This document shows positions 16,902-61,275 of a stretch of 64,000 nucleotides of DNA, in pieces. Location of the stretch: sequence record NZ_CP106960.1, one strand, 5' to 3'. This DNA comes from a plasmid. Under the pieces are notes generated by a model. That model was given only the letters and a program-made list of their open reading frames with translations. It made no database searches and was not told the DNA's origin. Both the position numbers and the translations under genes were made by a program. Positions within the stretch are counted from its first letter, which is position 1. The number at the start of each line of letters is the position of its first letter.

Positions 16902-17735
16902 TCAGGATTTCAGGGCTTTCATCATTTCAGCCATTCCCCATAACGCACGGTTCAGCTTCACATCCCCATCAATACCCGTCACGGCGCGCGTACGCTGGCG
17001 ACGCCCCTGCGCAGATTTCCCCAGCAACCCGCCTTTCGTCATATTCTCCTGAACGCGTTGATACGTCGTCCACAAATCATCTGCTTTGTCCTCATGACGA
17101 CGGACGGTCAGCACATCAGAAGTTGCCAGCGGAATATGCTTTCCTTCCGCGTTTTCATCATAGCGCCACCCTAACGCGGTCTGCGCAAAAATCTCCTGCT
17201 CATCACGCGACAGCACGGTATCTTTCATAATTTCGCGTGACTCTGTGATGCTGTCGAAAACATCCAGAACCTCGTAAGCGCCTTCAATGACCTGACCGAC
17301 AACGTCACCTTTGTGCGGGACACGGATTTCCCCGAACGTCTGGCCGCATACCATCCCGTTAGTACAGACGAAACGAAACATCCCCGGGATCATCTGATAG
17401 CTGCTGCTGCCATCGTGGCTGTTGAGCAGAATGATTTCCGGCACCTCTGCGCCTGCGATCTGCCCGGCACGGCGCAGACGCATCATGTGTTTGGTGTGAC
17501 CGCGCTTCCCTTCATCACGCGTGCGGGTCTGGCAGGCAAAGAACGGTAGGAAACCTTCTTCACGCAGCTTATCCAGAACGGTGATGGTTGGAATGTAGGT
17601 GTAACGTTCGCTACGTGAATCATGCTTGTCCTCTGAAAAAATGCTCGGGACAACGTGCATTAGCTCGTCATTGGTCAGTGCGCGCTCTTTACGGATGACG
17701 TTCATGGATGAAAAACGGGATGCTAAACGGGTCAT
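16902..17735 (-). CDS. DUF932-family (YafZ/YfjQ-like) leading-region protein
   Basis: It is about 280 aa with a conserved pattern typical of DUF932 proteins in plasmid leading regions and ICEs. The start is chosen at MTRLAS; the ORF extends to 17801. Confidence 0.5.
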   Translation of the reverse strand: MTRLASRFSSMNVIRKERALTNDELMHVVPSIFSEDKHDSRSERYTYIPTITVLDKLREEGFLPFFACQTRTRDEGKRGHTKHMMRLRRAGQIAGAEVPEIILLNSHDGSSSYQMIPGMFRFVCTNGMVCGQTFGEIRVPHKGDVVGQVIEGAYEVLDVFDSITESREIMKDTVLSRDEQEIFAQTALGWRYDENAEGKHIPLATSDVLTVRRHEDKADDLWTTYQRVQENMTKGGLLGKSAQGRRQRTRAVTGIDGDVKLNRALWGMAEMMKALKS

Positions 17736-18136
17736 ATCAATCTCCTCACATGTCACAAAAAAATCATTTCTGCCGTCGCCTTTTTGATGATGTATCACCA
17801 TCGCGGGAGGCCGTTTCCGTGATAAAGCGATCGCCCTGACCGTTCAGGAGACGATGCAAGGAGGCAATGCGAGGCCGCAGCGCAAGCGACCAGAGGGAGT
17901 GCGAACGGGTGAGAAGTGCGTACTTGCATCGTTTCCGGGTCAGGGCAGAGTCTTTCACGGGAAGAGGCAGCACGCGGTGAGCACCGGCGTCAAAAGGATG
18001 ATGCGGAAATTTCCCGGCGGGCGCCGCCCGACCCGGAACCGCCTGGCGGGTCCGGGTCGGGCGGCGCTGCCGGAACGGCAGCTGCAAGCCCGGGCGCCAG
18101 TGGTGAAGCATTACGCCCGGACAGACCTGTCTGCAA

Positions 18137-18709
18137 TTACCAGTCAAAAACCGGTGCGTTTTCCACTTCATCCCCCAGACCGGAGAAATGGATCATGCTG
18201 ATATCCGCCCGGCGAATGGCGCTGAAAATTAAAGCCCGCGCTTCGCGGGAAAGGCCCAGTTTTTTCAGGCGGAGTAAGGGTCTGGCGACAGCTTCCAGGC
18301 GAATGAGGTATCCCACATCCGTATCCATAATCCACCACCCTTCATGCTTCGTACGGCTCAAACCCTGCAACAAAAGATTGTCAGCTTCTGTCAGATGGTT
18401 AGCGCAGCATTCCATTACCGGGCGCAACATCATACCCGGCAGGGTGAGGGAATTACCCCAGCCCAGTGAATCAGTGATGTCATTCCATGACCATTTTTCA
18501 GTATCAGGTACGGGCAGCGCCAGTAACTGAAAAGGCACGCCCATTTTCTCCGCCATAAGCAGCCCTGTGCCGATCACGGCATCATCACGTTCCCCGATAT
18601 CGCAGCTGGCAATACGTTCGCCATCGAGAAAAATAGCCTCATCACCGTTATCAAGCTGAATACCTGTCACTCCGCGCGGAGCGTTCTGCAAGTAGCGTTT
18701 ACGCAACAT
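18137..18709 (-). CDS. Hypothetical protein (190 aa)
   Basis: A clean ORF in the leading region with no recognised domain. Confidence 0.4.
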   Translation of the reverse strand: MLRKRYLQNAPRGVTGIQLDNGDEAIFLDGERIASCDIGERDDAVIGTGLLMAEKMGVPFQLLALPVPDTEKWSWNDITDSLGWGNSLTLPGMMLRPVMECCANHLTEADNLLLQGLSRTKHEGWWIMDTDVGYLIRLEAVARPLLRLKKLGLSREARALIFSAIRRADISMIHFSGLGDEVENAPVFDW

Positions 18710-18761
18710 TTGTTTATCCCGTCAGAAGTTCAGAAGCCGCCCCTTTACGGGGCGGCGGTTA

Positions 18762-19001
18762 TCAGGCGCAGGCTCTGGATAATTCCAGTGACCGCAGAAG
18801 ATGTCCCAGTTCTGTGCAACTCATGGCCGGAATACGCACCGGCTGATGACGGCGCTCTGCTCGTGCAACAATCTTGCCCCATACTTTAGGACGGCGGGCG
18901 ATCGCCTCCGCAGGCACGGTTTCGTGGCGCTTGCGCGGATGACTGTTACGCCGGTTATTTACAAAATACTCGCGACATGCGAGGATGAATTGGTCTTTCA
19001 T
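18762..19001 (-). CDS. Small hypothetical protein (79 aa), paralog of 20904-21206
   Basis: It shares the C-terminal motif RIPAM-x5-GHxLRxLEL with the ORF at 20904-21206. Confidence 0.4.
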   Translation of the reverse strand: MKDQFILACREYFVNNRRNSHPRKRHETVPAEAIARRPKVWGKIVARAERRHQPVRIPAMSCTELGHLLRSLELSRACA

Positions 19002-19751
19002 AAAAAGTCTCCAGTACAGATTTTTTGTGAGTCCGGTCTGCTCGAACAGCCCGGAGTGAAGAAGCAGAGTTCGCGCTCTGCTTTTTTATTGCCTGAAATC
19101 CGGCAATATCCTGCGCGTCGTCTGACGCAAACCTCCCTAGTCGTCCGGCCTCTTCTGCCGTCGTCCTTTTCGGTTTTTTTGCAATGAGTGAAACGCCCTC
19201 ATTACGCTTATGCCCTGACGGGGCGACGACGAAAAGCAGGGGTGGAGGCCGGATTATTTGGAGCCTGCGAGAAAAAATCTGGCCGGAAAGCGACAGCGGC
19301 CCTTGCTGCACGGAGACGCTCCTTCAGCGTGCATAAGTAATGAGAGGCTTTCACGGCAACGACGGACAGGACGGCAGAAGACGCCGGAAACCCGGCGTTC
19401 CCTGGCGACCGCCGGGGCGGTCAGTGAAAGCGGCGCTGCCGGAACGGCAGCTGCAAGCGCAAGGGGTTCAGGCATCGCTTGCTATCCGAATGGACGGAGA
19501 CGCGAGCGGCTCCGCGTAGCGCGGTGGACACACGTCCACCACGCGAAGTGCAGGCGACGACCCGGCTACGACGGGGAGCCGAAGGTGCCCGCAGTGTAGT
19601 TCGCAAACAGAAAAACTCGTGCAAAACCATCACTGAAAGTCGTCGAAATATAAAATTAAAAAAGTGCAGATATTGCACTTTTATGGATTTATTTTTTGCA
19701 TAATTTCGCACTAAAATAAGTGCAGTTTTTGCAACTTTGGTGGGTTTCCAG

Positions 19752-20034: not shown

Positions 20035-20865
20035 TCAGGCGGCAACGCCTGCGTTGCGCATAAAGTCCATCATGGCCTTGATCCTGCGCTGGCTGTTAAG
20101 CCTTTCTTCGAAGTTATTCAGGTAATAAGCAGGCGTATATCGCACCAGTTTAAACTGCTTCGTCAGGGTGTTGCCTGTAACCACCTCGGCAGCGATTCCC
20201 AGCAACGAAAGCTGTATAAACGCCATATCAGCCGCAATCGGATCGATATCGATACAGCTGGCAAACAGGTGAGCCGATGGATTGACGTCAGCCTCAAGCA
20301 GGCATTCAGCATAGGCAATAATCATCCCGGCAGAGCCGCAGGCCGGATCGCTTATTGTGGCGATACCCTCCCGTGCTATTTTTTCCTGAATACCGGGGAT
20401 CAGCATCCGAGCCATCATCGACTGGACGTAATACGGCGTAAAGTATTGCCCCATCCCGCCCGATCCCAGCTCCAGCTCCATGAAAATCGAGCCAATAAAA
20501 TCATGAAATTTTGCATCCAGAGAGTAATACATCAGGGTGAACAGCTCCTGAAGGTTGCGGATATCGGCTGCATCATACCGGGTCAGGATCTTACGACAGT
20601 ACTCCGCTTTCTCCGGTGTTTTAAGACCCACGATGTCCACTTCCCTGGCGGCCAGCCTGATAAAGTCGCTGAAAACATCCCAGCGGTGAAGGTGTCGGGC
20701 GGTCTGATTGAACAGACGAATAAACTGCTTTCGCGCCGTGTCGATAGACATCAGGCGCGGCGCGGCCGGAGGCTGAGGAACGACCGGCGCCGGCTGCACG
20801 GCAGTGCGGACGGCGTCGCTGTGTTTTACCTGGTCAAAGAAGTCTGCAAAGCTCATCTGGGACAC
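20035..20865 (-). CDS. HsdM-like N6-adenine DNA methyltransferase homolog, short (276 aa) with a degenerate catalytic motif
   Basis: GQYFTP and motif I (DPACGSAGM) are intact, as is the HsdM-like region IDIDPIAADMAFIQLSLLG...GNTL. Motif IV reads TPAY instead of NPPF/Y, and the protein ends soon after. Confidence 0.55.
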   Translation of the reverse strand: MSQMSFADFFDQVKHSDAVRTAVQPAPVVPQPPAAPRLMSIDTARKQFIRLFNQTARHLHRWDVFSDFIRLAAREVDIVGLKTPEKAEYCRKILTRYDAADIRNLQELFTLMYYSLDAKFHDFIGSIFMELELGSGGMGQYFTPYYVQSMMARMLIPGIQEKIAREGIATISDPACGSAGMIIAYAECLLEADVNPSAHLFASCIDIDPIAADMAFIQLSLLGIAAEVVTGNTLTKQFKLVRYTPAYYLNNFEERLNSQRRIKAMMDFMRNAGVAA

Positions 20866-20903
20866 GTTTTTCTCCTGCCGCCCCGTCAGGGGCGGCGTTT
20901 TTA

Positions 20904-21206
20904 TCAGTTAAAGGCGCGTTTCAGTTCGAGCGTGCGCAGGACGTGACCCCAGTCGCTTCCGCACATGGCGGGAATGCGAATGCGGCGTTTCTTTTTAAGG
21001 CAGTGCGCGATATGACGACCGAACGCCCGCAGGGTCGGATCGACCTCGGCACTCGGAATGTCTTCCCGGTTGTGGCGGGTTTGTTTGCGTGTAACCGACG
21101 CCGGGGACTGGACAGACAGCGCGGAGGATGTAACAATCTGGACTTCACTGAATTGCATGGTTTGTTCCTTTTGGTGATGGCCGGATTTTCGTTTCGAGGC
21201 GTACAA
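20904..21206 (-). CDS. Small hypothetical protein, paralog of 18762-19001
   Basis: Shares the C-terminal motif RIPAMCGSDWGHVLRTLEL. The start may be at the internal MQFSEV. Confidence 0.4.
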   Translation of the reverse strand: MYASKRKSGHHQKEQTMQFSEVQIVTSSALSVQSPASVTRKQTRHNREDIPSAEVDPTLRAFGRHIAHCLKKKRRIRIPAMCGSDWGHVLRTLELKRAFN

Positions 21207-21242
21207 TCCGGCGTGGATGAAGCAGGCGTAAGCCTGCTTTTT

Positions 21243-21602
21243 TCATTTCTGGCTCAGGCTCTCAGGGCAGAACACCGCTTTCACTTTCGCCACGATATCG
21301 GCGTGGTTCAGGTTGCTGAAGTCACGCAGACGGAAATAGCGCTTACCAAAACGCGCAAAAATGTCCGTGACGTTCCCGCAAATCATTTCTGCCATCATGA
21401 AGGTTTCCGTGTCCTGGGCGGTGTCACAGCTCCAGTTGATCATTGGTGGGCGCAGACCCGCCGCGTCGTGGAACTTGTTCACGTCGATCTCGACAGGTGC
21501 GAGAAGCGCCTTCGTCTCACGGCTGCGCCAGTACGCATGCTCAGCTTCGGCGGTGGCGTTCATATCCAGAGAGGCGAATGAATCAGTTGTCTGTAAATGC
21601 AT
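21243..21602 (-). CDS. Hypothetical leading-region protein (119 aa)
   Basis: The ORF lies immediately downstream (minus sense) of repeat B1. Confidence 0.45.
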   Translation of the reverse strand: MHLQTTDSFASLDMNATAEAEHAYWRSRETKALLAPVEIDVNKFHDAAGLRPPMINWSCDTAQDTETFMMAEMICGNVTDIFARFGKRYFRLRDFSNLNHADIVAKVKAVFCPESLSQK

Positions 21603-21627
21603 GGTTTGTCTCCTTTTCAGTTTTCAC

Positions 21628-22150
21628 ATCACCCGTTGAGTTACGGGAGCCGCGGTTTTGACGTTTTGCGGGAACCTGCTGAAGTTTCCCGGGGGATAAA
21701 ACATCACCCGTTTGAGAACCTTCGCCGCAGGTGCGTAAACGCCACGGGCCGAGGCAGATGTCCGGGGCGGACGCCTGAAGTTTTCGCATGCGAAAAGTTT
21801 TGGTGGTCGTGCGCCAGCATTCACCCTGGACAGCCAGGAGGACTGTGGTGTTCTCAGCACCCGGCGGAGGGACTCAAAGGGGTGAAAAGGGACCGGACGG
21901 AATGGGCAGGGGCCCGCCGCAATGACGGAAAGCCGCGCGCGGCGAAACGGCGTTGCCCCCTACATCACGGCGCGTCTTCTGGTGACGGGATGCAGGGAGC
22001 GCAGGAACGGCGCGACTGAGCGGCGCAGCCGGAACGGCTGCTGCAAGCGATAAGGGGTTGCGTCAGGATGGAAACCCGCTGCCCCGGAGGGGCCGGGCAG
22101 AGACGGCGAAGCTGGCTCTGTGCGTAGCATGACAGCCGCCCGGACGCCCA
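21628..22150. repeat. GC-rich leading-region repeat B1 (about 520 bp), Frpo/ssi-like
   Basis: It is near-identical to 26701-27222 and contains hairpins such as gcagccggaacggctgc. Confidence 0.7.
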
Positions 22151-22429
22151 GTGTAGAAAAGAAAAGACGATGAAACGAATTAGGTACTATGCCCTGATCG
22201 ACGGGAGACTCTGTAGGGGGATAGTGCCCGACGCCAGGGAGTGGAGCGACGCGCCGCAGGCGCGTTGCCCTGCCCCGTTCGGCCTTCCGGTTTGTTCATG
22301 CGAGCGGTCGCGACCGTAAGGAAAAAGGGGCTGCCGGTAAACCGGCACCCCCTTCATAAAGGCGCTTGTGGTAAATTAGATCACACCAGAAGCCCTGAAA
22401 AGGCGGGGTTTCCCCCGCCTCACAGGTTG

Positions 22430-22588
22430 CTACTTACCGGATTCGTAGGCTAGCACGGCAGCGACCTCCCGTTTTCCGTCCTTTAAGCGAATTTCGCAAA
22501 GCGATTTCCGCGTCAGGTAAGTGAATGCCAGCAGTGTGAGACACACTATCAGTACGCACCAGATAACGGTACTTCGCGGCAGTTTCAT
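22430..22588 (-). CDS. hok: Hok/Gef/PndA-family membrane toxin (52 aa)
   Basis: The sequence [52 protein letters not shown] is a canonical Hok-family sequence. An overlapping upstream reading frame (mok-like) runs 22430-22645. Confidence 0.85.
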
Positions 22589-22833
22589 AGCCTTCTTCTC
22601 CTTGCGCAGAGCGCAGTAAGCGGCTAATCTAGATGTGTCTAGCATGTAGATCGGCCTCGGGTTAATTTGAAAAAAATTACTCGGGGCTTTTCTCTTTCTG
22701 CCTCACAGCATCCAAACCACTGAAACGTATGAGGCAAAAAGCCTCAAGCGCCAACGCCATTATATCCTTCTGTCGATGTTCTGCCCAGGAATACCCGCCT
22801 GAAACCCGGATAAATCCTCACCTTTTTTCGGCA

Positions 22834-23064
22834 TTATTCCCCGTTACCGGTTCCGTTTGCCCACTCGTCGATCTGCTCATCCAGCGCCTTCAGATGCTGA
22901 TCAACGCTTTCAGCAAGCCGCTCGCTTTCCGTCTCCAGCCAGCCGCTAAGTCCGTCCCATTGACATGACATTTTATTCAGCTTTTCTAACATGCTTTGCA
23001 GCTGTCTACGCTGTCTGCGTGCTGTCTTCAGCTCTGCTTTACAGGGATTGTTTCTTATGGCCAT
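22834..23064 (-). CDS. Small coiled-coil hypothetical protein (76 aa)
   Basis: The ORF is immediately upstream of psiA. Confidence 0.35.
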   Translation of the reverse strand: MAIRNNPCKAELKTARRQRRQLQSMLEKLNKMSCQWDGLSGWLETESERLAESVDQHLKALDEQIDEWANGTGNGE

Positions 23065-23786
23065 ACCGACCTCAGCGTAATTTTATTCGGTACCATCCAG
23101 CGCTCCAGCTCTTTCGCCACCGGTGACGCGTTCTCCGCCACATCCCGCACGTCAGCAACGATTTCATACGCCCGGTCGTACCAGCTTCTGACCAGATGAG
23201 AGAGCGACGGACAGCGTTCTGTCCATGCCCACAGCATCCGCTGCATGTCATAGTCCCGGACATCTTGCTGCGACCACGATTCATACCATGCCTGGAGCGT
23301 TTCCGGCGTCTGGAATGCCAGATCGATCTCAGCCTGACCGACCAGATTCTGGTACGCATCCTCTTTCTCGCGCGCGCGCCGAGTTTCCTGACGGGTGTAC
23401 AGGTCCGCTTCTCGCCTGTCCCGCTTTACCCTGCGATCGCTCAGACTGAATGCCTTCTCAGGAAACATGATTTGCACCAGTCGCGTATCCAGCGGCGCAT
23501 AGCAGTGGCGACCCCGCGAGCGAATCAGGGTATCAAACGCTTCCTCATAGCGTACCAGGGGGGTCTTGTCCTCTTTCAGCCAGTAGACCCCCGGCACCTG
23601 ATTGATTGATCGAGTACTTAACTTACTGCTGCCGGTCAGAATCCGGAAAAATGCACGAGCATAGGGATACGGCTGCCGGGAACGACGACCAGAATTTTCC
23701 GTCTCCTCTTCCACGATCATGATGGCGCGTAGAGCCGCTTCACGCTCGGGCCGCTGCGTGACGAGTGAGAGATGACGCGGGATCAT
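23055..23786 (-). CDS. psiA: PsiA (plasmid SOS inhibition protein A), 243 aa
   Basis: Size and position immediately downstream of psiB fit PsiA. Confidence 0.6.
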   Translation of the reverse strand: MIPRHLSLVTQRPEREAALRAIMIVEEETENSGRRSRQPYPYARAFFRILTGSSKLSTRSINQVPGVYWLKEDKTPLVRYEEAFDTLIRSRGRHCYAPLDTRLVQIMFPEKAFSLSDRRVKRDRREADLYTRQETRRAREKEDAYQNLVGQAEIDLAFQTPETLQAWYESWSQQDVRDYDMQRMLWAWTERCPSLSHLVRSWYDRAYEIVADVRDVAENASPVAKELERWMVPNKITLRSVWP

Positions 23787-24211
23787 AATTTCACCTCATG
23801 CTTCAGGAAGGCGATGATGTCGGAAGGGATATAGCCATCACGGTGGCGTACATCTGCCACACTCAGGGCGTGATTCAGTTCTGACACGTTGAAATAGTCG
23901 CACTGGCGAACGCAAACCACGTGATGGCCCTTTCCTGACATCATCAACAGAAGCCACTGGTCACTGGCCTCTCCCGGACTGCACAGCACCATCTGAAAGA
24001 GACCGTGGGTCGGTGCGAAACGGACCTGAACCGGGAACAGCCCACCGAACTCGCTACCGTACTCCCCGAGAATGTCCCAGTTATCCGGGAGTCTCAGCGC
24101 CACCATTACGGTATGAGTCAGTTCGCGGCGGAAGGAATAGCCTGCCGAGCGGGCAGTTTCGAAATCATCGGCGGTCATCTCTGCCAGGCTGAAATTTGTT
24201 GTGCTCATCAT
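23783..24211 (-). CDS. psiB: PsiB (plasmid SOS inhibition protein B), 142 aa
   Basis: It matches F PsiB in conserved blocks (RRELTH, DNW..GEYGSEFGG.FPVQVRF.P.H, LCSPG). Confidence 0.8.
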   Translation of the reverse strand: MMSTTNFSLAEMTADDFETARSAGYSFRRELTHTVMVALRLPDNWDILGEYGSEFGGLFPVQVRFAPTHGLFQMVLCSPGEASDQWLLLMMSGKGHHVVCVRQCDYFNVSELNHALSVADVRHRDGYIPSDIIAFLKHEVKL

Positions 24212-24249
24212 GTTCTCCTTATTGCCGCCCCGAAGGGCGGCACTCCTTA

Positions 24250-26265
24250 TCAGGCAGCCAGTGTGGTGTTGTCAGCGTCGGTTTCGGTGTCAACGGAAGC
24301 GGTCTCTTTCACAGCGTCAGACTGCGGACCCTGTAGCCATGCCGGAACCCAGCGGGTATCTTTCAGCCAGAACTCAGCATGTTCCGCCGCGTCGCCCTTT
24401 TTCATTTTCTCGGCGTCCTTCGCTGCCCCGACACTTCCGGCATCATTCATTGCGGCCACAATCTGGCTGTGCGTGAGGCTGCTGAAATATCCCACTTTTG
24501 TTGGTTGCCACCAGTCACGCAGATGGAAGCCAATCGCCTTTTCCAGATCGTCGAGTGGGCTGCGCGACGTATGCCCCATATCGCGGGTCTGAACACCGTC
24601 AACGGAACAGGCCGTGCAATACGCCATGAGCGACATCAGCAAATCACCTTTCAGGCTAAAGAAGGTTGTGAAATCCTTACGCCATCCTTCCGGCAGCAGT
24701 TCTTCCAGTCGGGCCTGTTCTGTCATCAGCGCGGTGTAAGCGAGGCCCTCATTTCCGGATGGGGCTTCGCGCGTCAGCGAGTAGTGCGAGACGTTAACGC
24801 TGATCCCGAAAGGATGCTTTTGTGGGCTGTAGCCGGAGAAAACGCTACAGCACATACGCCAGACCATCAGGGGAACGGCTTTTTCAGGCTGTTGCATCAG
24901 CGCAGCCTGGACAGCGAGAGTACGCTCAGATGACATTTTGGTGAGTAGCGGAACGCTGATCCCTTCTGCGGCATCGGGCTGACTTACATATGTGACGCTG
25001 CCTGACGCTTTCTTATCTTCATTCTCTGCGTCATCCTCCGGCAGATCAGCCTTACGGCACACGCCACGCTGCACGTACAGCTCACCCTCCATAAAGCTGG
25101 CTACCACGCCAGCATTCGACTTAAGCGCATCAGTCCATCCACGCACTTCTGCGGCATGTTCAATGAGGTTCATTTCGCTCAGGGCGGCGTAAGCCTCGTC
25201 ACTGTTCTCGTCGAGTGCATTAAGCTGATCGGTCAGTTCATCCAGACGACGGCTGTCATCCGGGTTGTATACCGCATCCGGCACCGGAAGCAGCAGGTAG
25301 TCGTTATCATTTGTACCGTAACGGCTAATTCTGGACGGACGGCCCATCGCCCATGCCCAGCCCTCTTTCTGCTGGATTTCGAGGGCAATTTTGTCCAGTT
25401 TTTCGGCCATCAGGGTGTCAACAAGCAGCCTGTCGACGGTCCCGTCGCCCTCCTGCGCGCTGAATAAATCTTCACGGACCACACCACCTGCCAGCTCGTA
25501 CGCCTCACGACCGATGAAGCCAAAACGGGCATCCGTAACGGCGATTTCACTCTCGGTGATCTGCCTTTTGACTAAATGGGCTGACGCACAGGAATAAGTC
25601 GCCATCAGGTTTTCATACACGGCGACCTGACGAACCTGATCGCTTTCAAGGCACAGCGCCTGACACTGCTCCATATCAAGCTTGTCTTCTGCCAGCAGTT
25701 TCAGCAGTGACGGTGCGAGGGTGGCGAGTTTCAGCATGCGCTGTACATGGCGGGAGCCGAACCCCAGTTCATCACCAATCTGCGAAGCGGTTTTGCCCAT
25801 CTCAGCCAGGGTGCGGAAGCTCGTGATTTGCTCTGCCGGGTGCATTGCCACACGCTGCTCATTTTCCGCATGAGATGCCGCAGCGGCGATTTCGCGCGAT
25901 ACGCGTTTAACAGGCACCACGTCGTCCGGCTGGATCAGGTTGTCTTCAAGGAGCAGCGCAAGGGCCGTGGTACGGCGACCGCCACAGGCCACGCCGGATT
26001 TACAGTCTGGCATATCATGGACAACGAGGTTCTGAAGCAGACCAATCGCAGCAATGGACGCAGCCAGTCCGCGAACGCTCTCCTTTGAATAGGGAATGGT
26101 TCTGGCATTCAGGTCTGAAATGACCAGATTTTTGACTTTCTCATACTCGATCGGTGTGGCATCGAGGATGGATTTCAGCACCTCCGGCGCGATGGCCTGC
26201 GCAGGGCTGGCTTTCTTACGGCTGGATTGTTTAGGGCTTTTTGCTTTAGACTCGGCAACTGACAT
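24250..26265 (-). CDS. ParB-like nuclease-domain protein of the leading region (671 aa; YubM/YdcA-like)
   Basis: It has an N-terminal ParB/Srx-like domain (VISDLNARTIPYSKE, GLLQNLVV) and a long acidic C-terminus. Confidence 0.6.
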   Translation of the reverse strand: MSVAESKAKSPKQSSRKKASPAQAIAPEVLKSILDATPIEYEKVKNLVISDLNARTIPYSKESVRGLAASIAAIGLLQNLVVHDMPDCKSGVACGGRRTTALALLLEDNLIQPDDVVPVKRVSREIAAAASHAENEQRVAMHPAEQITSFRTLAEMGKTASQIGDELGFGSRHVQRMLKLATLAPSLLKLLAEDKLDMEQCQALCLESDQVRQVAVYENLMATYSCASAHLVKRQITESEIAVTDARFGFIGREAYELAGGVVREDLFSAQEGDGTVDRLLVDTLMAEKLDKIALEIQQKEGWAWAMGRPSRISRYGTNDNDYLLLPVPDAVYNPDDSRRLDELTDQLNALDENSDEAYAALSEMNLIEHAAEVRGWTDALKSNAGVVASFMEGELYVQRGVCRKADLPEDDAENEDKKASGSVTYVSQPDAAEGISVPLLTKMSSERTLAVQAALMQQPEKAVPLMVWRMCCSVFSGYSPQKHPFGISVNVSHYSLTREAPSGNEGLAYTALMTEQARLEELLPEGWRKDFTTFFSLKGDLLMSLMAYCTACSVDGVQTRDMGHTSRSPLDDLEKAIGFHLRDWWQPTKVGYFSSLTHSQIVAAMNDAGSVGAAKDAEKMKKGDAAEHAEFWLKDTRWVPAWLQGPQSDAVKETASVDTETDADNTTLAA

Positions 26266-26337
26266 AGTTAATACCTCCGGTGTTAATGATTGTCCGGCCC
26301 TGCGGAGTGACCGCTCCGGCAGGGCACCTTCATACTG

Positions 26338-26661
26338 CTATTTTCTGAATCCGTAGCTTGCAAGTGCGCGATTCATCCACGCCCCGCCATCTTTCTGGAA
26401 ATTCCATACACGCTCTTTCAACATCCCGTCTTCATCACGGACAACAAGCTGAAAATGCGTTTTCTGATCGTTCTCAATACCGACGTTGGTGTACTGCGCC
26501 GCAACAGCCCTCGCCTCTTCTCGGGTAAATGCCCCTTCAGGCAGCACCACAGGCGCGGTGGCAACGTCAGCGTTCAGCAATGCCGCTAGTTCAAGTTCTT
26601 CAGCGGTCGGTTCGCGTAGCGACACGGACTGATTCAGAAATTCCTGTAATGTTTTGCCCAC
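26338..26661 (-). CDS. Hypothetical protein (107 aa)
   Basis: The ORF lies directly downstream (minus sense) of repeat B2. Confidence 0.4.
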
Positions 26662-26700
26662 TGCATTTCTCCTGATAAAAGGGTCTGGCCTTTAAAACCC

Positions 26701-27222
26701 ATCACCCGTTGAGTTACGGGAGCCGCGGTTTTGACGTTTTGCGGGAACCTGCTGAAGTTTCCCGGGGGATAAAACATCACCCGTTTGAGAACCTTCGCCG
26801 CAGGTGCGTCAACGCCACGGGCCGAGGCAGATGTCCGGGGCGGACGCCTGAAGTTTTCGCATGCGAAAAGTTTTGGTGGCCGTGCGCCAGCATTCACCCT
26901 GGACAGCCAGGAGGACTGTGGTGTTCTCAGCACCCGGCGGAGGGACTCAAAGGGGTGAAAAAGGACCGGACGGAATGGGCAGGGGCCCGCCGCAATGACG
27001 GAAAGCCGCGCGCGGCGAAACGGCGTTGCCCCCTACATCACGGCGCGGTTTCCGGCGACGGGATGCAGGGAGCGCAGGAACGGCGCGACTGAGCGGCGCA
27101 GCCGGAACGGCTGCTGCAAGCGATAAGGGGTTGCGTCAGGATGGAAACCCGCTGCCCCGGAGGGGCCGGGCAGAGACGGCGCAGCCGGCTCTGTGCGGAG
27201 CATGACAGCCGCCCGGACGCCC
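26701..27222. repeat. GC-rich leading-region repeat B2, Frpo/ssi-like
   Basis: Near-identical to 21628-22150. Confidence 0.7.
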
Positions 27223-27272
27223 GGGGCAGCAAAAAAAAGCCGGAAAAACTAACTGTTATCTTGCTGAAAATT

Positions 27273-27527
27273 TTATTTTTTATTCGCTTCAGCCATCTCA
27301 GCATATTGCGGGTCGCTCGCTTTCGGCAACTGCAGGCTCAGCTGGCGGTAGTGGCGCAGCCTTTCCATAAAATACTCGCGAAGATGCACCGGCTGCTCGC
27401 GCGCGATAATTTCAGGTACCACCGGCTGATTCAGGCGCTCTTTAAACGCGACGCCCGACGCGGCCAGATCTACCGCCACCTTGTCCTGATCCTCTTTTGA
27501 TAGTTTTGAAAGATTAATTTCGCTCAT
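27273..27527 (-). CDS. Hypothetical protein (84 aa)
   Basis: ORF in the leading region. Confidence 0.35.
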   Translation of the reverse strand: MSEINLSKLSKEDQDKVAVDLAASGVAFKERLNQPVVPEIIAREQPVHLREYFMERLRHYRQLSLQLPKASDPQYAEMAEANKK

Positions 27528-27684
27528 ATTTTTACCTTGTTAATTTTTTTACTGACCTGCGCTGCCAGATCATGCAGGGCGGCGTGTCGCGGCGCCGAAG
27601 GCGCAGTGACAGCCGCCGGCAGGCAAGGCCTGCCCGGGTTTTCCCACGGGCTGACAGGCGGAGGTGCCGCCTGCCTGGATCACC

Positions 27685-27873
27685 TTAACGTTGATCCTGC
27701 CGGATAAACTGTCCGCCTATGTATACCGCAGACTGGCAGCTCATAAAATGGCAAATTTCGTCGATCACTTCTTCGGTTCTCAGCTCCCGTAATCCGGCCT
27801 CACGGCGGCCGGCGTTAATTCGTTTTTTGTACTGACGCAGGATGTCACGGGTTTGTGTATCAAGTTTCATCAT
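27685..27873 (-). CDS. Small hypothetical protein (62 aa)
   Basis: The ORF lies upstream of ardA; confidence is low. Confidence 0.25.
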   Translation of the reverse strand: MMKLDTQTRDILRQYKKRINAGRREAGLRELRTEEVIDEICHFMSCQSAVYIGGQFIRQDQR

Positions 27874-27914
27874 TCTGTCCTTTTATGCAGGGGGACTATC
27901 CCCCTGCCCTTAAA

Positions 27915-28415
27915 TCAGTTCTGAAAAACGTGGCCTTCCAGGAACACCAGACCGTTCATAAACATATCCCGGCCGTAAGCATCATAATCAAAGTAACCGC
28001 GCAGCGATTCAGGCACCTCATTAAGCAAGCCGTGCTCCTGCACGTAGTCATACGCATAATCTTCCTCGCTTGCGGCTTCACCACACCAGGCATCTTCAAA
28101 CGCGTCGTAATCACATTCACCGGTGAACTCCACCCAGGCAATGAAAGCCTCGTCCTTACCGTCATCAACCGCGCGCTTGTAGGCCTCAATAAAAGCCCAG
28201 TCAACCGAGCTTTCTGAAGCAAATTTATCCGGAATGCCCTCCCAGTCCTGGAACATCAGTTCCGGATCGGATTCGTTTGCGTGCAACGCATGGCATGCCT
28301 CCATAAAATCTGACTTATCGTCAAAATCGGTGAGATCGAACCATTTACCGAAGAGACTGCCGCAGTTGTATTTGTGGTAAGTACCAACATAAATCGCCGG
28401 GGTGGTAGTGCTCAT
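27915..28415 (-). CDS. ardA: ArdA antirestriction protein (DNA mimic), 166 aa
   Basis: The sequence MSTTTPAIYVGTYHKYNCGSLFGKWFDLTDFDDKSDFMEACHALH is a canonical ArdA N-terminus, and the C-terminus is acidic. Confidence 0.9.
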   Translation of the reverse strand: MSTTTPAIYVGTYHKYNCGSLFGKWFDLTDFDDKSDFMEACHALHANESDPELMFQDWEGIPDKFASESSVDWAFIEAYKRAVDDGKDEAFIAWVEFTGECDYDAFEDAWCGEAASEEDYAYDYVQEHGLLNEVPESLRGYFDYDAYGRDMFMNGLVFLEGHVFQN

Positions 28416-28455
28416 AAAAATCCTCCGTTGCCAGTGTCGTCTGAGTTCCGGCTTA

Positions 28456-28681
28456 CGCCGTGCCGACACGACAGCCCGACTTCGAGCGGAAGATGCAAGG
28501 GCGACACCGCAGGCCGCAGCGCAGATAAAAGCGAGGACGTTCTGGACGGTTCTCCCGCGAAACCTGAGCGGGAGAACGACGGGAAGAACGGCATCAGGCG
28601 TAAAAATCTGCGACCGGGCGAGGATGGCGGCGAAGCGACCCCTTGCATCTGGAGCGTTCGGGCTAAAGTGAAGGCACGGCG
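28456..28681. repeat. Leading-region repeat A1 (about 226 bp), Frpo/ssi-like, upstream of ardA
   Basis: It contains the perfect hairpin ctcccgcgaaacctgagcgggag. Copies recur at 29618-29843 and 30771-30995. Confidence 0.7.
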
Positions 28682-28804
28682 TTAGCCGCAGACCGCACGG
28701 ATGTTTTTGCCTGCGTGGCCGTAACATCGTGGAGGTCACGCCGGTAAAGCGGAGCGTGCGACATCCTTTTTGCTTAAAAGCGGGGCGCTCTGCCCCGCCT
28801 CAAT

Positions 28805-29584
28805 TCAGGCTGCGATCCGGATCCCGGAAAATGATTTCATCATCACATCGATTTCCGCTCGGGCTGTTTTCACAACATCCCGTAACCAGTGGCGGTCAAA
28901 CCAGACACGTGACGGGCTGTCAGGATGCCGAAGGGCATAGGGAACATGCGTCTGGCCGACGGTGCGCCCGTTACACTCCAGGCGGATCTGCAGACGGCGG
29001 AAGGTTTCTTTCTCGTCGAGCACGGCTTTCAGCCTGGCATCCAGCGTATCGTTGTCCCATTCAGCATCGTCCTGAACCTGCTCCACCTCTGTCACCGTCA
29101 GGGTGAAATTGCGTGTGCGGCGGGTCAGTACCAGCGGTTCTGTGGCAGGCCGCAGCGCTTCGGTCAGGCGATACCCTGCCGACGCCACGCAGCTGCAGAC
29201 GTGATTGATTTCGTCTCGCAGTGCTTTCAGCAGGCAGAGGATTTGTGGCGTATTCATCCCGGCAGGACAGTTGTCGTATTCCAGTGAAATGGTTCCGGCA
29301 TGTGCCTTTCGGTGCCCCAGCGAGTTCCTGTAAAGGCGAACGACCAGTTCGCTTCTGTGGATCAGCGGCAGCAGCATCTGCACTGCCTGTTCGCTCATTA
29401 ATCCCCGCAGGGCGATTTCAGGTAACAGTCGCTGCAGTTGCGCGGCATCGAGCTGGCCATAAAACGCCACGCCCTCCCCACGCGAGTAATTCAGGCTGGT
29501 ATCGATATCCATCGTGGCTGGCCAGCCACGCGAAACCAGTGTGTTGCGGGTATGGCGGTGCATAAAGCGATAAGCGGTGGTCAT
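28805..29584 (-). CDS. Hypothetical leading-region protein (259 aa)
   Basis: The ORF is downstream (minus sense) of repeat A2. Confidence 0.45.
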   Translation of the reverse strand: MTTAYRFMHRHTRNTLVSRGWPATMDIDTSLNYSRGEGVAFYGQLDAAQLQRLLPEIALRGLMSEQAVQMLLPLIHRSELVVRLYRNSLGHRKAHAGTISLEYDNCPAGMNTPQILCLLKALRDEINHVCSCVASAGYRLTEALRPATEPLVLTRRTRNFTLTVTEVEQVQDDAEWDNDTLDARLKAVLDEKETFRRLQIRLECNGRTVGQTHVPYALRHPDSPSRVWFDRHWLRDVVKTARAEIDVMMKSFSGIRIAA

Positions 29585-29617
29585 GATGTTCTCCTTATAC
29601 TGATGCGGCGACGTCTT

Positions 29618-29843
29618 CGCCGTGCCGACACGACAGCCCGACTTCGAGCGGAAGATGCAAGGGCGACACCGCAGGCCGCAGCGCAGATAAAAGCGAGGAC
29701 GTTCTGGACGGTTCTCCCGCGAAACCTGAGCGGGAGAACGACGGGAAGAACGGCATCAGGCGTAAAAATCTGCGACCGGGCGAGGATGGCGGCAAAGCGA
29801 ACCCTTGCATCTGGAGCGTTCGGGCTAAAGTGAAGGCACGGCG
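29618..29843. repeat. Leading-region repeat A2
   Basis: Near-identical to A1. Confidence 0.7.
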
Positions 29844-29939
29844 CTGATATCCGCCGCGCTGGCGCGGCATAAAAAGCGGAGTAAACGACATCCTTGTGCG
29901 TTGAAAATACCGGCCAGCAAATCCTGGCCGGGCATAGCG

Positions 29940-30275
29940 TTATCGGGTGTACTCCTGCCATTCCATATCAAATCTGTCCCTGACCACCGGCAATTCGGGC
30001 GTACCGGTGACGATCCAACTGTCGAGGAACTTCAGTCCACGCAGCAATGTATTTTCAACTTCATCCAGTAACACTATGCTGCTGAACCAGACCTTTCTCT
30101 CAGGAAATAGCCAGCAGTGATCTGCGCTGTCCTCTTTCACATCTGGCCACCAGGTTCGCCCCATAGACATGGCGCCAGCTTCGGCCAGGGCAAGATTTTC
30201 AGCTTCAATAAGCATATAAACATCGGTTTCAGTGCAGTGGGTTTCGGTCTGAAATCCTGTCAGCCAGGTGTTCAT
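29940..30275 (-). CDS. Hypothetical protein (111 aa)
   Basis: Its start overlaps the stop of the upstream ORF 30272-30784 (operon-like). Confidence 0.4.
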   Translation of the reverse strand: MNTWLTGFQTETHCTETDVYMLIEAENLALAEAGAMSMGRTWWPDVKEDSADHCWLFPERKVWFSSIVLLDEVENTLLRGLKFLDSWIVTGTPELPVVRDRFDMEWQEYTR

Positions 30276-30784
30276 AGGTCTTTTACCTCATTGATGGCAA
30301 ACCGCAGGTGATCCCAGTTAAATCCATAGTTAGCATCGTGCGCGTAATAAGCGCGCTCCATCGCCGCTGCAATCGTCGCGCTATCAAGCGAGCTATCGAC
30401 CGCAAGAAAATCATCTTCAAGCCAGAATGTGCCGGTGCAGAGCGCGTCCTGGGGGTATTCCTGCAGACGGGTCATCATTCCTCCCACAGTCATCTCTCGC
30501 CGCAAAATATGGGACGGGGTAAGCACAGAATCTGCGACATCGTTCCAGCACCATTCTTCATCATCGGGTACAGACTGCTGAATGGTCTGGAGCTGCACAC
30601 CCGGCATCCTGGAAAGTCGTTCCAGCACATCCCCCAGATACAGTCTTTCACCGCTACCGTCTTCACTTCCCAGGTAATGGTTATTGAGATAGACGGCAAA
30701 CTCGCCATTATCGAGATCAATACAGGTCAGTCTGAACATTACGCTCTCATCCTCATTCGGCACCCAGTTGCGCCGTGCCGACAC
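30272..30784 (-). CDS. Hypothetical protein (170 aa)
   Basis: The ORF is downstream (minus sense) of repeat A3. Confidence 0.4.
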   Translation of the reverse strand: MSARRNWVPNEDESVMFRLTCIDLDNGEFAVYLNNHYLGSEDGSGERLYLGDVLERLSRMPGVQLQTIQQSVPDDEEWCWNDVADSVLTPSHILRREMTVGGMMTRLQEYPQDALCTGTFWLEDDFLAVDSSLDSATIAAAMERAYYAHDANYGFNWDHLRFAINEVKDL

Positions 30785-30995
30785 GACAGCCCGACTTCGA
30801 GCGGAAGATGCAAGGGCGACACCGCAGGCCGCAGCGCAGATAAAAGCGATGACGTTCTGGACGGTTCTCCCGCGAAAATTGAGCGGGAGAACGACGGGAA
30901 GAACGGCATCAGGCTTAAAATTTGCGACCGGGCGAGGATGGCGGCGAAGCGAACCCTTGCATCTGCAGCGTTCGGGCTAAAGTGAAGGCACGGCG
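30771..30995. repeat. Leading-region repeat A3
   Basis: Near-identical to A1 and A2. It is the last backbone element before the AT-rich island. Confidence 0.7.
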
Positions 30996-31221
30996 CTGAT
31001 ATCTGCCGCCCTGGCGCGGCATAAAAAGCGGAGCAAGCGACGTCTTTCATAAGGCACCAAATTTGAGATACTGCATCATAGCGGTGCCTGTTATGTATAT
31101 ATTTTTTGGTAAGAAACTTGTTATAGTCGGTAGACTGTAGTGAAATTTTTGTTCAACCTTCTGAAGTTTTTTCTTATTATCATTCCTAATGCAGATATAT
31201 TATTAATTAACAGGATTTTTT

Positions 31222-32212: not shown

Positions 32213-32310
32213 TTACCTAACAATAAACCTGTTTAAATATCCAGATAAAAACATTCAATCTGGGTCAAATGAGTGATACAGTTTCACCCATAAGACCCAA
32301 TGGAGGCAAT

Positions 32311-33744
32311 ATGTCTGAATTTGAATTACTGGCGCAGGATCTGCTTGAGAAAGCAGAAGCGGAAGAACAACTGCGACAGGAAAATGATAAAAAGCTGCTC
32401 GGGCAGGTGCTGGAAATCTATGACCAGAAGTACGTGGCTGAACTGCTTAGAAAAGTTGGTAAAAATGAGTGGAGTCGCGAGACTCTTAATCGCTGGATTA
32501 ATGGTAAGTGCTCACCTAAGACGCTGACGTTAGCCGAAGAGGAACTTCTACGAAAAATGCTTCCGGAAGCGCCTGCACATCACCCTGACTATGCCTTCCG
32601 GTTTATTGACCTGTTTGCTGGGATTGGAGGTATACGGAAGGGCTTCGAAACCATCGGTGGCCAGTGCGTTTTTACCAGTGAATGGAATAAAGAGGCTGTG
32701 CGCACATATAAAGCTAACTGGTTTAACGATGCTCAGGAACACACTTTCAATCTCGATATTCGGGAAGTCACGCTCAGTGATAAACCTGAAGTACCTGAAA
32801 ACGATGCCTATGCTTACATTAATGAGCATGTGCCGGATCATGATGTACTTCTAGCAGGTTTCCCCTGTCAACCGTTCAGCCTTGCGGGCGTAAGCAAGAA
32901 AAACTCGCTCGGGCGCGCGCATGGTTTCGAATGTGAGGCTCAGGGAACGCTTTTCTTCGATGTGGCGCGTATTATACGCGCAAAAAAACCTGCCATCTTT
33001 GTTCTTGAAAACGTTAAAAACCTGAAGAGCCATGACAAGGGTAAAACCTTTAAAGTCATCATGGATACCCTCGACGAACTGGGCTATGAAGTTGCGGATG
33101 CAGCTGAGATGGGCAAAAACGATCCTAAAGTTATCGACGGAAAGCACTTTTTACCTCAGCACCGAGAACGTATCGTTTTGGTCGGTTTCCGTCGTGATCT
33201 GAACATTCACCAGGGCTTTACCCTGCGCGATATTAGTCGTTTTTATCCGGAACAGCGTCCGTCATTTGGCGAACTGCTGGAACCCGTGGTTGACAGCAAA
33301 TATATACTGACGCCGAAACTCTGGGAGTATCTCTATAACTACGCCAAAAAGCACGCAGCTAAGGGTAACGGATTCGGTTTTGGCCTCGTTAATCCTGAAA
33401 ATAAAGAAAGCATTGCCCGTACGCTTTCTGCTCGCTATCACAAAGACGGGTCTGAAATTCTGATAGACCGTGGCTGGGATATGGCCACAGGTGAAACAGA
33501 CTTCGCGAACGAAGAAAATCAGGCGCATCGGCCCCGCAGGCTGACTCCACGAGAGTGCGCGCGCCTTATGGGTTTTGAAAAAGTAGATGGCAGGCCTTTT
33601 CGCATTCCTGTGTCAGACACTCAGTCGTACAGGCAGTTCGGTAACTCCGTAGTGGTGCCCGTGTTTGAAGCCGTAGCCAAACTGCTTGAACCTTATATCC
33701 TGAAAGCGGTTAATGCCGATTCGTGCAAGGTTGAACGAATCTGA
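32311..33744 (+). CDS. ecoRIIM: EcoRII-type cytosine-5 DNA methyltransferase (Dcm-like, CCWGG), 477 aa
   Basis: It has C5-MTase motifs [15 protein letters not shown] (I), [11 protein letters not shown] (IV), ENVKNL (VI) and [10 protein letters not shown] (X), and is near-collinear with E. coli Dcm. Confidence 0.85.
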
Positions 33745-33777: not shown

Positions 33778-34992
33778 CTATGGAATATCTGCGTAAAGCC
33801 CTGTCAGCTCAGCAATAAACGCACCTAGCGTCATTAGCTCAGCTCTCACCGCCTCCGGGTATTTTTTGTGCAGCGATGATGGCACGACCAATCTGACACC
33901 CGACTCCCGCATCTCCCGATATTGAGCCAGAGAAACTCCCTCTTGGAGTGTAAACAGATGCACCTGATGAATTTTATCGGCCTCATTCAGTATCTGACGC
34001 CAGCGATCCTTACAGGTAGTCTTGACTGCCAGCATGCGCAGATTTTCTACGGGAAACTCAGTATCGTGGTAAGCCCCTGCGGAAGGGAAAAGGAAATCGG
34101 GTTTTTTATTACCTTCTGTGATGGCCTGCGTCGCAAAGTGTCGCAGGCCGTGCTCAATGAATAGATGCTCCAGGTGCAGTTCCAGCGACTTCCCGGCTCT
34201 GGATTTACGGCGATTGCTGACAGAATTGGCCAGCGCAATAAATTCATCCACAGAGCCAAATCCTTTCCGGATGATATCCAGAACATGCAGTTCCTCAACC
34301 AATAGAAATATGTCGTACTCCACGCGCCGGCGGTCAAGAAGTTGCTCATCCGGATCAAGGGAATTTTTCACATAATGGCTGGCTGCATACTGAATAATTT
34401 CACTTCCCGACGGAAAGCGCAGGTGCCAGTCTTCAGGTAGAATATATTTATGATTTACTGGCGCTTGCTGTAGAGATAGTCCGCCTAGAATCTGTCCTGC
34501 GGGGCCGGATATAAGCGCTCCGGGTATAACTTCACCAATAGCGGTCTCAATGACGTCCTCTTCATCAGTGCTGGCGCATACCCAAATATTTACTTCCTTA
34601 CAGTCCCCCCCTTGCTCATCAAGCTTGAAAGCCAGGAGCGTCAGAGCCCCTGTATTTTCAGGATTCTGAAGTGGGCTGCCTCTACCCCAGCGGGTAATCC
34701 TTTTTTCATTCCGGGTTTTACCAAAATGACGGCTGTTATAATAAATTGCCCGGGCTTCGCTGTCAGGGCAATCATGCGATGACACATGTGCGGTGAGAAA
34801 AACCGAAGGGTTCAGTTCACGGGTATGGTTGATAGACGGAAAGAGTTTTTCAACGATACCTGAAGGGATATAAAGCCCTACCTGGTGACCACCTGTTGCG
34901 CCGGTATCGTTGGCGGAAAGGCGTTTGATGTAGACGAAGTAATTCTCACATGCGATCTCAAGTAGCCAGTTGTGGAAAACCGACATAAGCAT
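33778..34992 (-). CDS. ecoRIIR: EcoRII-type restriction endonuclease (404 aa)
   Basis: It is convergent with the methylase across a 33 bp gap. Size and sequence blocks match my recollection of R.EcoRII (SVFHNWLLEIACENYFVYIKRLSANDTGATGGHQ...). Confidence 0.8.
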   Translation of the reverse strand: MLMSVFHNWLLEIACENYFVYIKRLSANDTGATGGHQVGLYIPSGIVEKLFPSINHTRELNPSVFLTAHVSSHDCPDSEARAIYYNSRHFGKTRNEKRITRWGRGSPLQNPENTGALTLLAFKLDEQGGDCKEVNIWVCASTDEEDVIETAIGEVIPGALISGPAGQILGGLSLQQAPVNHKYILPEDWHLRFPSGSEIIQYAASHYVKNSLDPDEQLLDRRRVEYDIFLLVEELHVLDIIRKGFGSVDEFIALANSVSNRRKSRAGKSLELHLEHLFIEHGLRHFATQAITEGNKKPDFLFPSAGAYHDTEFPVENLRMLAVKTTCKDRWRQILNEADKIHQVHLFTLQEGVSLAQYREMRESGVRLVVPSSLHKKYPEAVRAELMTLGAFIAELTGLYADIP

Positions 34993-61264: not shown

Positions 61265-61275
61265 TGGAGGTAACT

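Follow-up and report, generated by a model that had tools for sequence, protein, structure and literature searches.

The plasmid DNA analysed here (64,000 nucleotides (nt) of sequence record NZ_CP106960.1, one strand, hereafter the window) carries an origin of transfer (oriT) and, beyond it, a series of hairpin-forming intergenic repeats, grouped as two families, A and B, and three further hairpins, C, D and E, whose positions and neighbouring genes are collected in Table 1. The window resembles Leclercia, Lelliottia and Enterobacter plasmids with a MOBP relaxase (top match NZ_MH909330, 98.7%) and belongs to an IncI1-like (MOBP) Leclercia plasmid. The nick motif CACATCCTG/T (the slash marks the presumed cut) was found on the + strand at ~16263, and gCACATCCTGTCCCG lies on this same strand, after an inverted repeat just beyond nikA/nikB. 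This oriT stretch is 81% identical to that of the IncI1 plasmid pESBL, with a nearly unchanged nick region, and lies in the pESBL orientation with respect to nikA and the leading genes. A relaxase of the R64/RP4 type remains on the 5' end of the DNA downstream of the cut, which we take to be made after ATCCTG, placing the nick at ~16263/16264.

As the oriT nick motif sits on the + strand, this is the transferred strand, which would enter from ~16264 toward higher coordinates, and the stretch from ~16264 to ~31 kilobases (kb) is the leading region. The gene order outward from oriT includes DUF932, DUF5983, an N6-methylase, hok/sok, psiA, psiB, a ParB-like gene, DUF905, a theta subunit and ardA. 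Nearly all leading-region genes are encoded on the minus strand, and therefore the entering + strand is their template.

Family A consists of three direct copies (A1 to A3), mutually 96-99% identical (99.1% and 96.5% by BLAST against copy 1); a figure of 74% for copy 3 was an artefact, because the ungapped comparison met a 1-nt indel. They had been placed in an earlier note on this DNA at 28456-28681, 29618-29843 and 30771-30995, and all three were found there. The copies stand in a row with a spacing of 1.15 kb, 12-15 kb 3' of the nick on the + strand, with a GC content of 62-63% compared to 55% for the window, and A2 and A3 have ~45 nt of 3' flank in common. Each ends 30-45 nt above a minus-strand start codon preceded by a good ribosome-binding site, the distance being ~40 nt for A1 and the ATG of ardA at 28415.

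The earlier description of the copies as lying directly 5' of minus-strand open reading frames (ORFs) holds for all of them, except for the size of 170 amino acids (aa) attributed to one ORF: its GTG start (30784) falls inside A3, and the ATG at 30739, giving 155 aa, is the likely start. The 274-aa ORF over ardA is also an over-extension, as the gene is of ~166 aa and starts at 28415. Other ORFs, among them 28374-28685 (+ strand) and 29595-29891 (minus strand), overlap with repeats and are most likely artefacts, given that the substitutions in them follow the compensation of paired stems; a coding reading is further weakened by a conserved 'AAGGATG' string that lacks its ATG in copy 3.

Table 1. 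Features of the window discussed in the text.
Feature	Coordinates	Strand	Remarks
nikB	13118-15817	minus	
nikA	15838-16173	minus	
oriT core	16218-16275	+	inverted repeat catttgtaata...tattacaaatg, then nick motif gCACATCCTG/TCCCG
Hairpin C	17810-17970	+	short family A type without apical insert; 5' of DUF932 gene (16902-17801, minus)
GAA mini-hairpin	18066-18082	+	GCTGCCG-GAA-CGGCAGC; 3' of hairpin C
Hairpin D	19144-19392 (249 nt)	+	5' of 79-aa ORF and DUF5983 gene (18137-19001, minus)
GAA mini-hairpin	19435-19451	+	GCTGCCG-GAA-CGGCAGC; 3' of hairpin D
B1 core	21627-21965	+	5' of 119-aa ORF, 84-aa ORF and N6-methylase operon (20035-21602, minus); positional equivalent of F Frpo1
B1 3' tail	21966-22160	+	small GC-rich hairpins, including GCAGCCG-GAA-CGGCTGC at 22025-22041
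B2 core	26700-27038	+	5' of DUF905, parB-like, psiB, psiA and hok/sok (22430-26577, minus); positional equivalent of F Frpo2
B2 3' tail	27039-27233	+	GAA mini-hairpin at 27098-27114
A1	28455-28683	+	putative class 2 (ssp2-type) hairpin; 5' of ardA (27915-28415, minus)
A1 boxes	28643-28648; 28664-28669	+	-35 TTGCAT; -10 TAAAGT; both on 3' arm
Flank motif GCGGAG-N4-CGACATCCTT	28749-28768	+	66 nt 3' of A1
259-aa ORF	28805-29584	minus	no Pfam match
A2	29617-29844	+	5' of 259-aa ORF
A2 boxes	29805-29810; 29826-29831	+	TTGCAT; TAAAGT
Flank motif, second copy	29876-29895	+	32 nt 3' of A2
111-aa ORF	29940-30275	minus	no Pfam match
155-aa ORF	30272-30739	minus	no Pfam match
A3	30770-30996	+	5' of 155-aa and 111-aa ORFs (29940-30739, minus)
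A3 boxes	30957-30962; 30978-30983	+	TTGCAT; TAAAGT
Flank motif, third copy	31028-31047	+	32 nt 3' of A3
EcoRII-type pair, methylase	32269-33744		within the 29.8-kb stretch
EcoRII-type pair, endonuclease	33778-34992		within the 29.8-kb stretch
Class 1 integron attI	57105-57176		within the 29.8-kb stretch
Tn3-family fragment	59521-60072		within the 29.8-kb stretch
Hairpin E	~60965-61145	+	short family A type

Anatomy of the family A hairpins

A1 folded at -73.5 kcal/mol (z-score -6.2), and the stem ctcccgc-gaaacctga-gcgggag, which the earlier note had quoted, exists as the apical hairpin of the family (~28554-28576). When 17 family A homologues with identities down to ~45% were aligned, 97% of the cells of the hairpin were paired across the set, and compensatory changes were detected at 19 of the 47 pairs, compared to 10.2 ± 1.5 in shuffles (0 of 500 reached 19) and 1-4 in slid controls.

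On the 3' arm, TTGCAT is followed by a 15-nt spacer and TAAAGT. Among the 17 homologues TTG is nearly invariant and TAnnnT invariant, and the spacer is always of 15 nt and free of indels. The -35 hexamer is always paired, also where its bases change, and in the -10 box the first T is paired, and the three bases that begin with the -11 A invariably lie in a mismatch bubble opposite GAC or AAA. Opposite the TAAAGT of the 3' arm stands the ACGACA of the 5' arm, and the sense strand of a duplex would read TTGCAT-N19-TGTCGT, without a -10 box. Because the duplex form has no such box, the putative promoter exists only in the hairpin; a search for boxes created only upon folding had been proposed in the earlier note, and the -10 TAAAGT is one of them. 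The polarity of the boxes fits as well: with the 3' arm as non-template strand, the polymerase would be pointed through the hairpin base into the 5' flank and the gene, and transcription from A1 would start at ~28459-28463 on the template arm.

The family aligns end to end with the pESBL hairpins located 5' of klcA and ardA, and with the F hairpin 5' of a klcA/ardB homologue. These are class 2 single-strand promoters of pESBL and F, the start sites of which were mapped by 5' rapid amplification of cDNA ends (5' RACE; Wen et al., Nucleic Acids Research (NAR) 2025, PMC12672017). The F element, ssp2, was found to halt complementary-strand synthesis where its stem ends, a stall that does not depend on transcription and lasts until UvrD melts the hairpin (Fraikin et al., bioRxiv 10.64898/2026.01.09.698686); it is named 'Frpo3' in a codon-usage paper (NAR 2026), and it is 86% identical to Frpo'4 of Samuel et al. 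(Nature 2024).

As judged from the alignments, the homology of family A to the class 2 promoters is distant but clear. Family A has in common with the pESBL and F elements the GCCGTGCC/GGCACGGC clamp, the -10 bubble, the paired -35 TTGCAT, the 15-nt spacer, the GCCGCAGC and GACCGGGTGA motifs, the apical CCGCGAAACCTGAGCGG hairpin and a location above anti-restriction genes (ardA here, klcA/ardB and ardA in pESBL/F). In contrast, it forms a separate Klebsiella/Enterobacter/Leclercia branch at ~60% identity, its -10 box is TAAAGT instead of TAAGAT, it is present as three full copies in tandem cassettes compared to one copy in F and two in pESBL, and two of its three copies precede genes without a Pfam match. 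The class 2 features found in family A are homology, a position on the transferred strand above a gene, and boxes rebuilt in the stem. The promoters and neighbours of the 259-, 155- and 111-aa genes make these genes candidates for new anti-defence functions.

BLAST searches with family A matched IncI Escherichia coli plasmids at E values of 7e-7 to 9e-6 and at least 5000 plasmid records, mostly from Klebsiella, in which the repeat was almost never annotated as a gene. A scan of genome contigs (596 gigabases) for the apical 17-mer CCGCGAAACCTGAGCGG was discarded, as its 86 stretches were roughly the number expected by chance and came mostly from unrelated GC-rich genomes; the real loci among them were four in three genomes, namely Escherichia ruysiae (two), an Apirhabdus plasmid and Erwinia dacicola.

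Family B and hairpins C, D and E

Family B comprises two 534-nt copies (21627-22160 and 26700-27233), 97.4% identical and 5073 nt apart. Two copies had been announced with a length of 520 nt, which proved slightly short; the unit reaches 534 nt because a 195-nt 3' tail module is included. Family B is composite, with a predicted promoter core and a separate conserved 3' module, in which the previously noticed stem gcagccg-gaac-cggctgc was located (22025-22041). Around 100 nt of this tail adjoins both Frpo copies of F, and ~60 nt adjoins two of the three ssi copies of pESBL.

The first ~340 nt of family B are homologous to F ssiD (70% over 343-357 nt, with E values of 2.5e-32 and 8.7e-32 for the two copies), and the family is 72% identical to published Frpo' candidates (Samuel et al. 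2024). The core that is invariant in the F and ColIb/pESBL types, consisting of TGTCCGGGG (5' arm), a small bubble of unpaired CATTC and CCCTGGAC (3' arm), is kept, and this same core is what family B shares with ssi1-3 of ColIb-P9/pESBL. The + strand of the B1 core folded at -87.6 kcal/mol (z -3.7), compared to -72.2 kcal/mol (z -1.4) for its complement. A class 1 consensus structure built from 13 F-type copies contains 71 pairs, seven of them with compensatory changes and many with changes on one side only that still allow G.T pairing, most of the variation being compatible with G.T pairs on the + strand. The features of class 1 (Frpo/ssiD, also termed ssp1) found in family B are ssiD homology, a position above conserved leading operons and a stable stem-loop.

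The arrangement is also that of Frpo1 and Frpo2 in F: two copies on the transferred strand, ~5 kb apart, with hok/sok between them, one copy before the DUF905/parB-like/psiB/psiA operon and the other before the next operon toward oriT. The hok/sok module (22430-22753; Rfam RF01794 sok, 97.8 bits) takes the place that flmAB has between the F copies, where it was suggested to guard against deletion via recombination of the repeats (Couturier et al.). The differences from F are that no ssb gene lies below family B copy 2, that the apical A/T-rich hairpin is shorter and that the two copies are 97% identical, compared to 92% for those of F.

The box candidates of family B are an invariant CCCTGGACA on the 3' arm and, on the 5' arm, TTGAGA-N17/18-TAAACG, the latter hexamer being TCAACG in B2. 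Two further candidates were rejected. Boxes in the A/T-rich apical 'UP-like' hairpin would not be present in all members, as some homologues lack that hairpin, and the TTGAGA-N17-CATACT of the old F ssiD entry reads CATCACT in the F reference and is also mutated in B2. As a side observation, F NC_002483 15652-16002 reads GGGGCATCACTGCC in both Frpo copies, while the D90178 ssiD entry reads GGGGCATACTGCC; since the F reference differs in both copies, the CATACT -10 of D90178 is probably a sequencing error.

The earlier note had listed partial copies of the repeats at three places. Structured elements do exist there, but they are separate hairpins and not fragments of family A or B. The region 17855-18130 corresponds to hairpin C, of the family A type, plus a 17-nt motif common to the family B tail (18066-18082); 19290-19470 corresponds to the 3' arm of a different hairpin, D, plus the 17-nt motif at 19435-19451; and 60990-61110 is the middle of the separate short hairpin E.

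Hairpin C aligns with family A, is conserved in Lelliottia and folded at -42.0 kcal/mol on the + strand compared to -32.7 kcal/mol on the complement. C and E resemble the short elements Frpo*1 and Frpo*3 of Samuel et al. (2024), and a pESBL hairpin that precedes the DUF1281/M.EcoGIX operon and may be what Wen et al. term 'class 3' (or ssp3), in carrying GCCGCAGCGCAAGCGAC, GTGCGAACGGGTG and a paired TTGCAT-type -35. The pESBL, insect and Enterobacter short hairpins all keep TTGnnn-N15-TAnnnT, whereas C has a weak -10 and E has none at the expected place. In the closest relative, hairpin E lies 1.8 kb after A3 and precedes a gene of ~255 aa; here it is an orphan, because IS1 cuts its gene to 24 codons.

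Hairpin D is a further candidate single-strand promoter. It was found only in close relatives among the loci compared, no similarity of it to class 1 or class 2 was detected, and its sole canonical box pair, TTGCAA-N18-TACGCT, stands on the 5' arm and points to the loop. Its assignment to class 3 was discarded, since it failed to align with the sequences that precede the methylase operon in pESBL or F.

The ancestral leading region ends just past hairpin E with a umuD/umuC-like pair (61264-62975, + strand), in line with a remark of Samuel et al. that umu-like operons frequently flank anti-defence islands.

Transferred strand, proposed mechanism and alternatives

The + strand folded better than its complement in ten of the ten elements compared (A1-3, the B1 and B2 cores, the full B1 and B2 units, C, D and E), with an advantage of 6.7-17 kcal/mol, or 25-32 kcal/mol for the full B units. 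The z-scores of the DNA folds were -6.2 for A1, -3.7 for the B1 core, -4.8 for C and -4.3 for both D and E, and no shuffled sequence folded as well. Families A and B also contain conserved G.T pairs, which would become C.A mismatches on the complement. The strand argument is based on this energy asymmetry, the G.T pairs and the polarity of the boxes. Transfer of the opposite strand, one of two outcomes that the earlier note would have taken as refuting its own proposal, is contradicted by the nick motif on the + strand, by the greater stability of all ten hairpins on it and by the G.T pairs.

Canonical duplex promoters between any hairpin and its gene were not found with a consensus promoter scan restricted to spacers of 16-18 nt, a restriction because of which the scanner also misses the family A boxes. 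Profile scans gave no further full copies of family A or B in the 64-kb window, and no Rfam match was obtained at the repeats, the only ones in the whole window being sok (22586-22753) and an attI/aminoglycoside leader (57105-57176).

These data make it very probable, on sequence grounds, that the repeats represent two established classes of single-strand DNA promoters, located on the transferred strand of an IncI1-like leading region. The earlier proposal that they are of the Frpo/ssi type is supported by the homology of family B to F ssiD/Frpo and by the alignment of family A with the class 2 promoters of pESBL and F. Both families correspond to already named and published classes, and in this respect the finding is an ordinary one. 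Promoter activity, start sites, and the priming and roadblock roles are what we infer for the elements of the window, along the following lines.

In conjugation, the + strand would enter the recipient with its 5' end first, from the nick at ~16263, and before its complement is synthesized each repeat would fold into a long imperfect hairpin, the stem of which would mimic a duplex sigma-70 promoter. For family A, the 3' arm would provide the non-template strand, with the -35 TTGCAT fully paired, the fixed 15-nt spacer and the -10 TAAAGT with its -11 A unpaired in the 3-nt mismatch bubble, the base being closed by a GC clamp (GGCACGGCG/CGCCGTGCC). The host RNA polymerase would start near the hairpin base and run along the 5' flank with the + strand as template, transcribing ardA, the gene of 259 aa or the 155/111-aa pair. 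Synthesis of the complement would then iron the hairpin out into the duplex TTGCAT-N19-TGTCGT, which lacks the -10 box, and expression would stop. The family B core would do the equivalent job for the psiB-psiA operon and the methylase operon. By homology with F, class 1 transcripts likely also prime complementary-strand synthesis, and class 2 hairpins likely also stall it, prolonging the window of single-stranded expression.

The minus-strand origin of M13/f1 and the rolling-circle sso are also single-stranded DNA hairpins, recognised by the host sigma-70 RNA polymerase as promoter mimics. They differ from the repeats described here in giving rise only to a short primer RNA, in driving no genes and in their lack of sequence similarity to these repeats.

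Several observations weigh against the single-strand promoter interpretation. For family A, similarity by BLAST to the F and IncI copies is modest (71-72% over ~130 nt), overall identity to the validated class 2 elements of pESBL and F is only ~60%, and the 15-nt spacer is short for sigma-70, although it is invariant in the family, validated members included. For family B, neither arm showed a TTGnnn-N15-19-TAnnnT common to the class 1 copies and, since no conserved boxes were found, its putative promoter anatomy is drawn from homology. Among the shorter hairpins, the 3' arm of C has TTGCAT, a 16-nt spacer and a weak -10 (CAGAGT), and no convincing -10 box was found in E. Finally, fold energy by itself is weak evidence for a strand, because inverted repeats fold on either one.

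An alternative is that the hairpins are mainly replicative, acting as ssi priming sites for complementary-strand synthesis or as roadblocks that delay it, with boxes that would bring in RNA polymerase solely to act as a primase. In its favour, Frpo was originally recovered as an ssi, DNA synthesis is primed by Frpo transcripts, and the stall at F ssp2 does not need transcription; moreover, the family A copies are long, GC-rich and three in a row 1.15 kb apart. However, they stand 30-45 nt above start codons with good ribosome-binding sites, and only in the orientation that feeds a gene. As both roles are compatible, it is the replication-only version that competes with the promoter reading, and we consider this version improbable.

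Much less probable still is a role at the RNA level, in which the repeats would serve minus-strand transcripts as a structured 5' leader, or as a 3' stabiliser or terminator resembling repetitive extragenic palindromic (REP) sequences, with the DNA hairpin being incidental. The repeats are intergenic and structured, inverted repeats fold in RNA too, and genuine intrinsic terminators do exist between the cassettes (29910-29931 and ~28778-28803). Nevertheless, the minus-strand sequence folds 7-17 kcal/mol worse in every element, the conserved G.T pairs turn into C.A mismatches in the RNA sense, nothing at the RNA level would explain a near-invariant TTG and an invariant TAnnnT at a constant distance, and Rfam gave no match at the repeats; in addition, with a start at the hairpin base, family A would lie outside the transcript of its own gene. 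That the repeats are selfish or neutral (like miniature inverted-repeat transposable elements (MITEs), or duplication remnants) without a function for the plasmid is likewise very improbable: although they are very widespread, are more alike within the plasmid (96-99%) than to their Lelliottia orthologues (85-93%) and have a rearrangement breakpoint exactly at the end of A3, their orientation and position above start codons are strictly one-way, compensatory changes maintain the hairpin down to ~45% identity, the promoter positions are conserved (TTG nearly invariant, TAnnnT invariant), homologues have been validated by experiment, and gene conversion among functional copies accounts better for the likeness within the plasmid.

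As single-strand promoters, such hairpins would decide which plasmid genes are expressed during the first minutes in a new cell, here ardA (anti-restriction), psiB (SOS inhibition) and the methylase, and by governing early gene expression they would affect the establishment of resistance plasmids in restricting hosts. For annotation, the analysis adds eight intergenic candidate single-strand promoters (two of class 1, three of class 2 and the unclassed C, D and E), unannotated in thousands of plasmid records, and corrects two ORF starts. The current picture of how single-strand promoters function is unchanged by these results, which add comparative evidence on class 2 anatomy, the companion motifs described below and three candidate anti-defence genes.

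Putative promoter-gene units and companion motifs

The unit that recurs in this region combines a hairpin with one to several genes and with an intrinsic terminator; ccggccag-gatttg-ctggccgg-tatttt (29910-29931) and gcggggc-agag-gccccgc-tttt (~28778-28803) are the terminators located. Relatives differ by whole units of this kind. Lelliottia has the ardA and 259-aa units and lacks the third, pOP-I of Enterobacter cloacae has all three family A units, and E. chengduensis lacks the 111-aa gene and has an additional unit (DUF1380, a hypothetical gene and a methylase) with its own short hairpin, TTGCGA-N15-TAGCGT. Comparison across plasmids, which the earlier note had recommended, showed that what follows a given hairpin class may be ardA, klcA, a methylase operon or an uncharacterised gene. 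Thus, of the cassette-like shuffling suggested there, the pattern was supported, but not a mechanism of shuffling.

Compared to the Lelliottia orthologues (11494-12884), A2 is 85% and A1 93% identical, whereas the copies within the plasmid are 96-98% identical to one another. As the identity within the plasmid exceeds that of A2 with its orthologue, gene conversion among the copies is suggested; the same likeness within a plasmid (99%) is seen in pESBL and p21254.

With respect to the closest relative, NZ_MH909330, 29.8 kb (30997-60834; contents in Table 1) stand in place of 1.7 kb. The left edge of this stretch is exactly the 3' end of A3 and its right edge is IS1 (transposase 60317-60820), and its presence moves hairpin E 30 kb further from oriT.

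The hairpins could also be the joints of a cassette system, in which recombination at hairpins and conserved flanks would let leading regions gain, lose or exchange units, with gene conversion homogenising the copies within a plasmid. This is a possibility that we regard as rather unlikely. If true, the leading region would be an integron-like platform for anti-defence genes, and the companion motifs (the GAA mini-hairpin by B, C and D, and GCGGAG..CGACATCCTT by A) would constitute an undescribed functional part of it, for example nucleation or priming sites.

The first of these companion motifs is a GAA-loop mini-hairpin, GCNNCCG-GAA-CGGNNGC. The window holds four copies, all on the + strand, compared to 0.02 expected by chance, and each lies ~40-100 nt 3' of B1, B2, C or D. 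With compensatory stems (GCAGCCG, GCTGCCG, GCGACCG), the mini-hairpin also adjoins single-strand promoters in F, pESBL, Klebsiella, Apirhabdus and Salmonella. The second, next to family A, has the consensus GCGGAG-N4-CGAC(A/G)TC(C/T)TT, with three matches compared to 0.02 expected by chance; a conserved ORF start is excluded by copy 3, which reads ACG where ATG would be needed. A similar string was detected near the insect-metagenome candidates Frpo'4 and Frpo*3.

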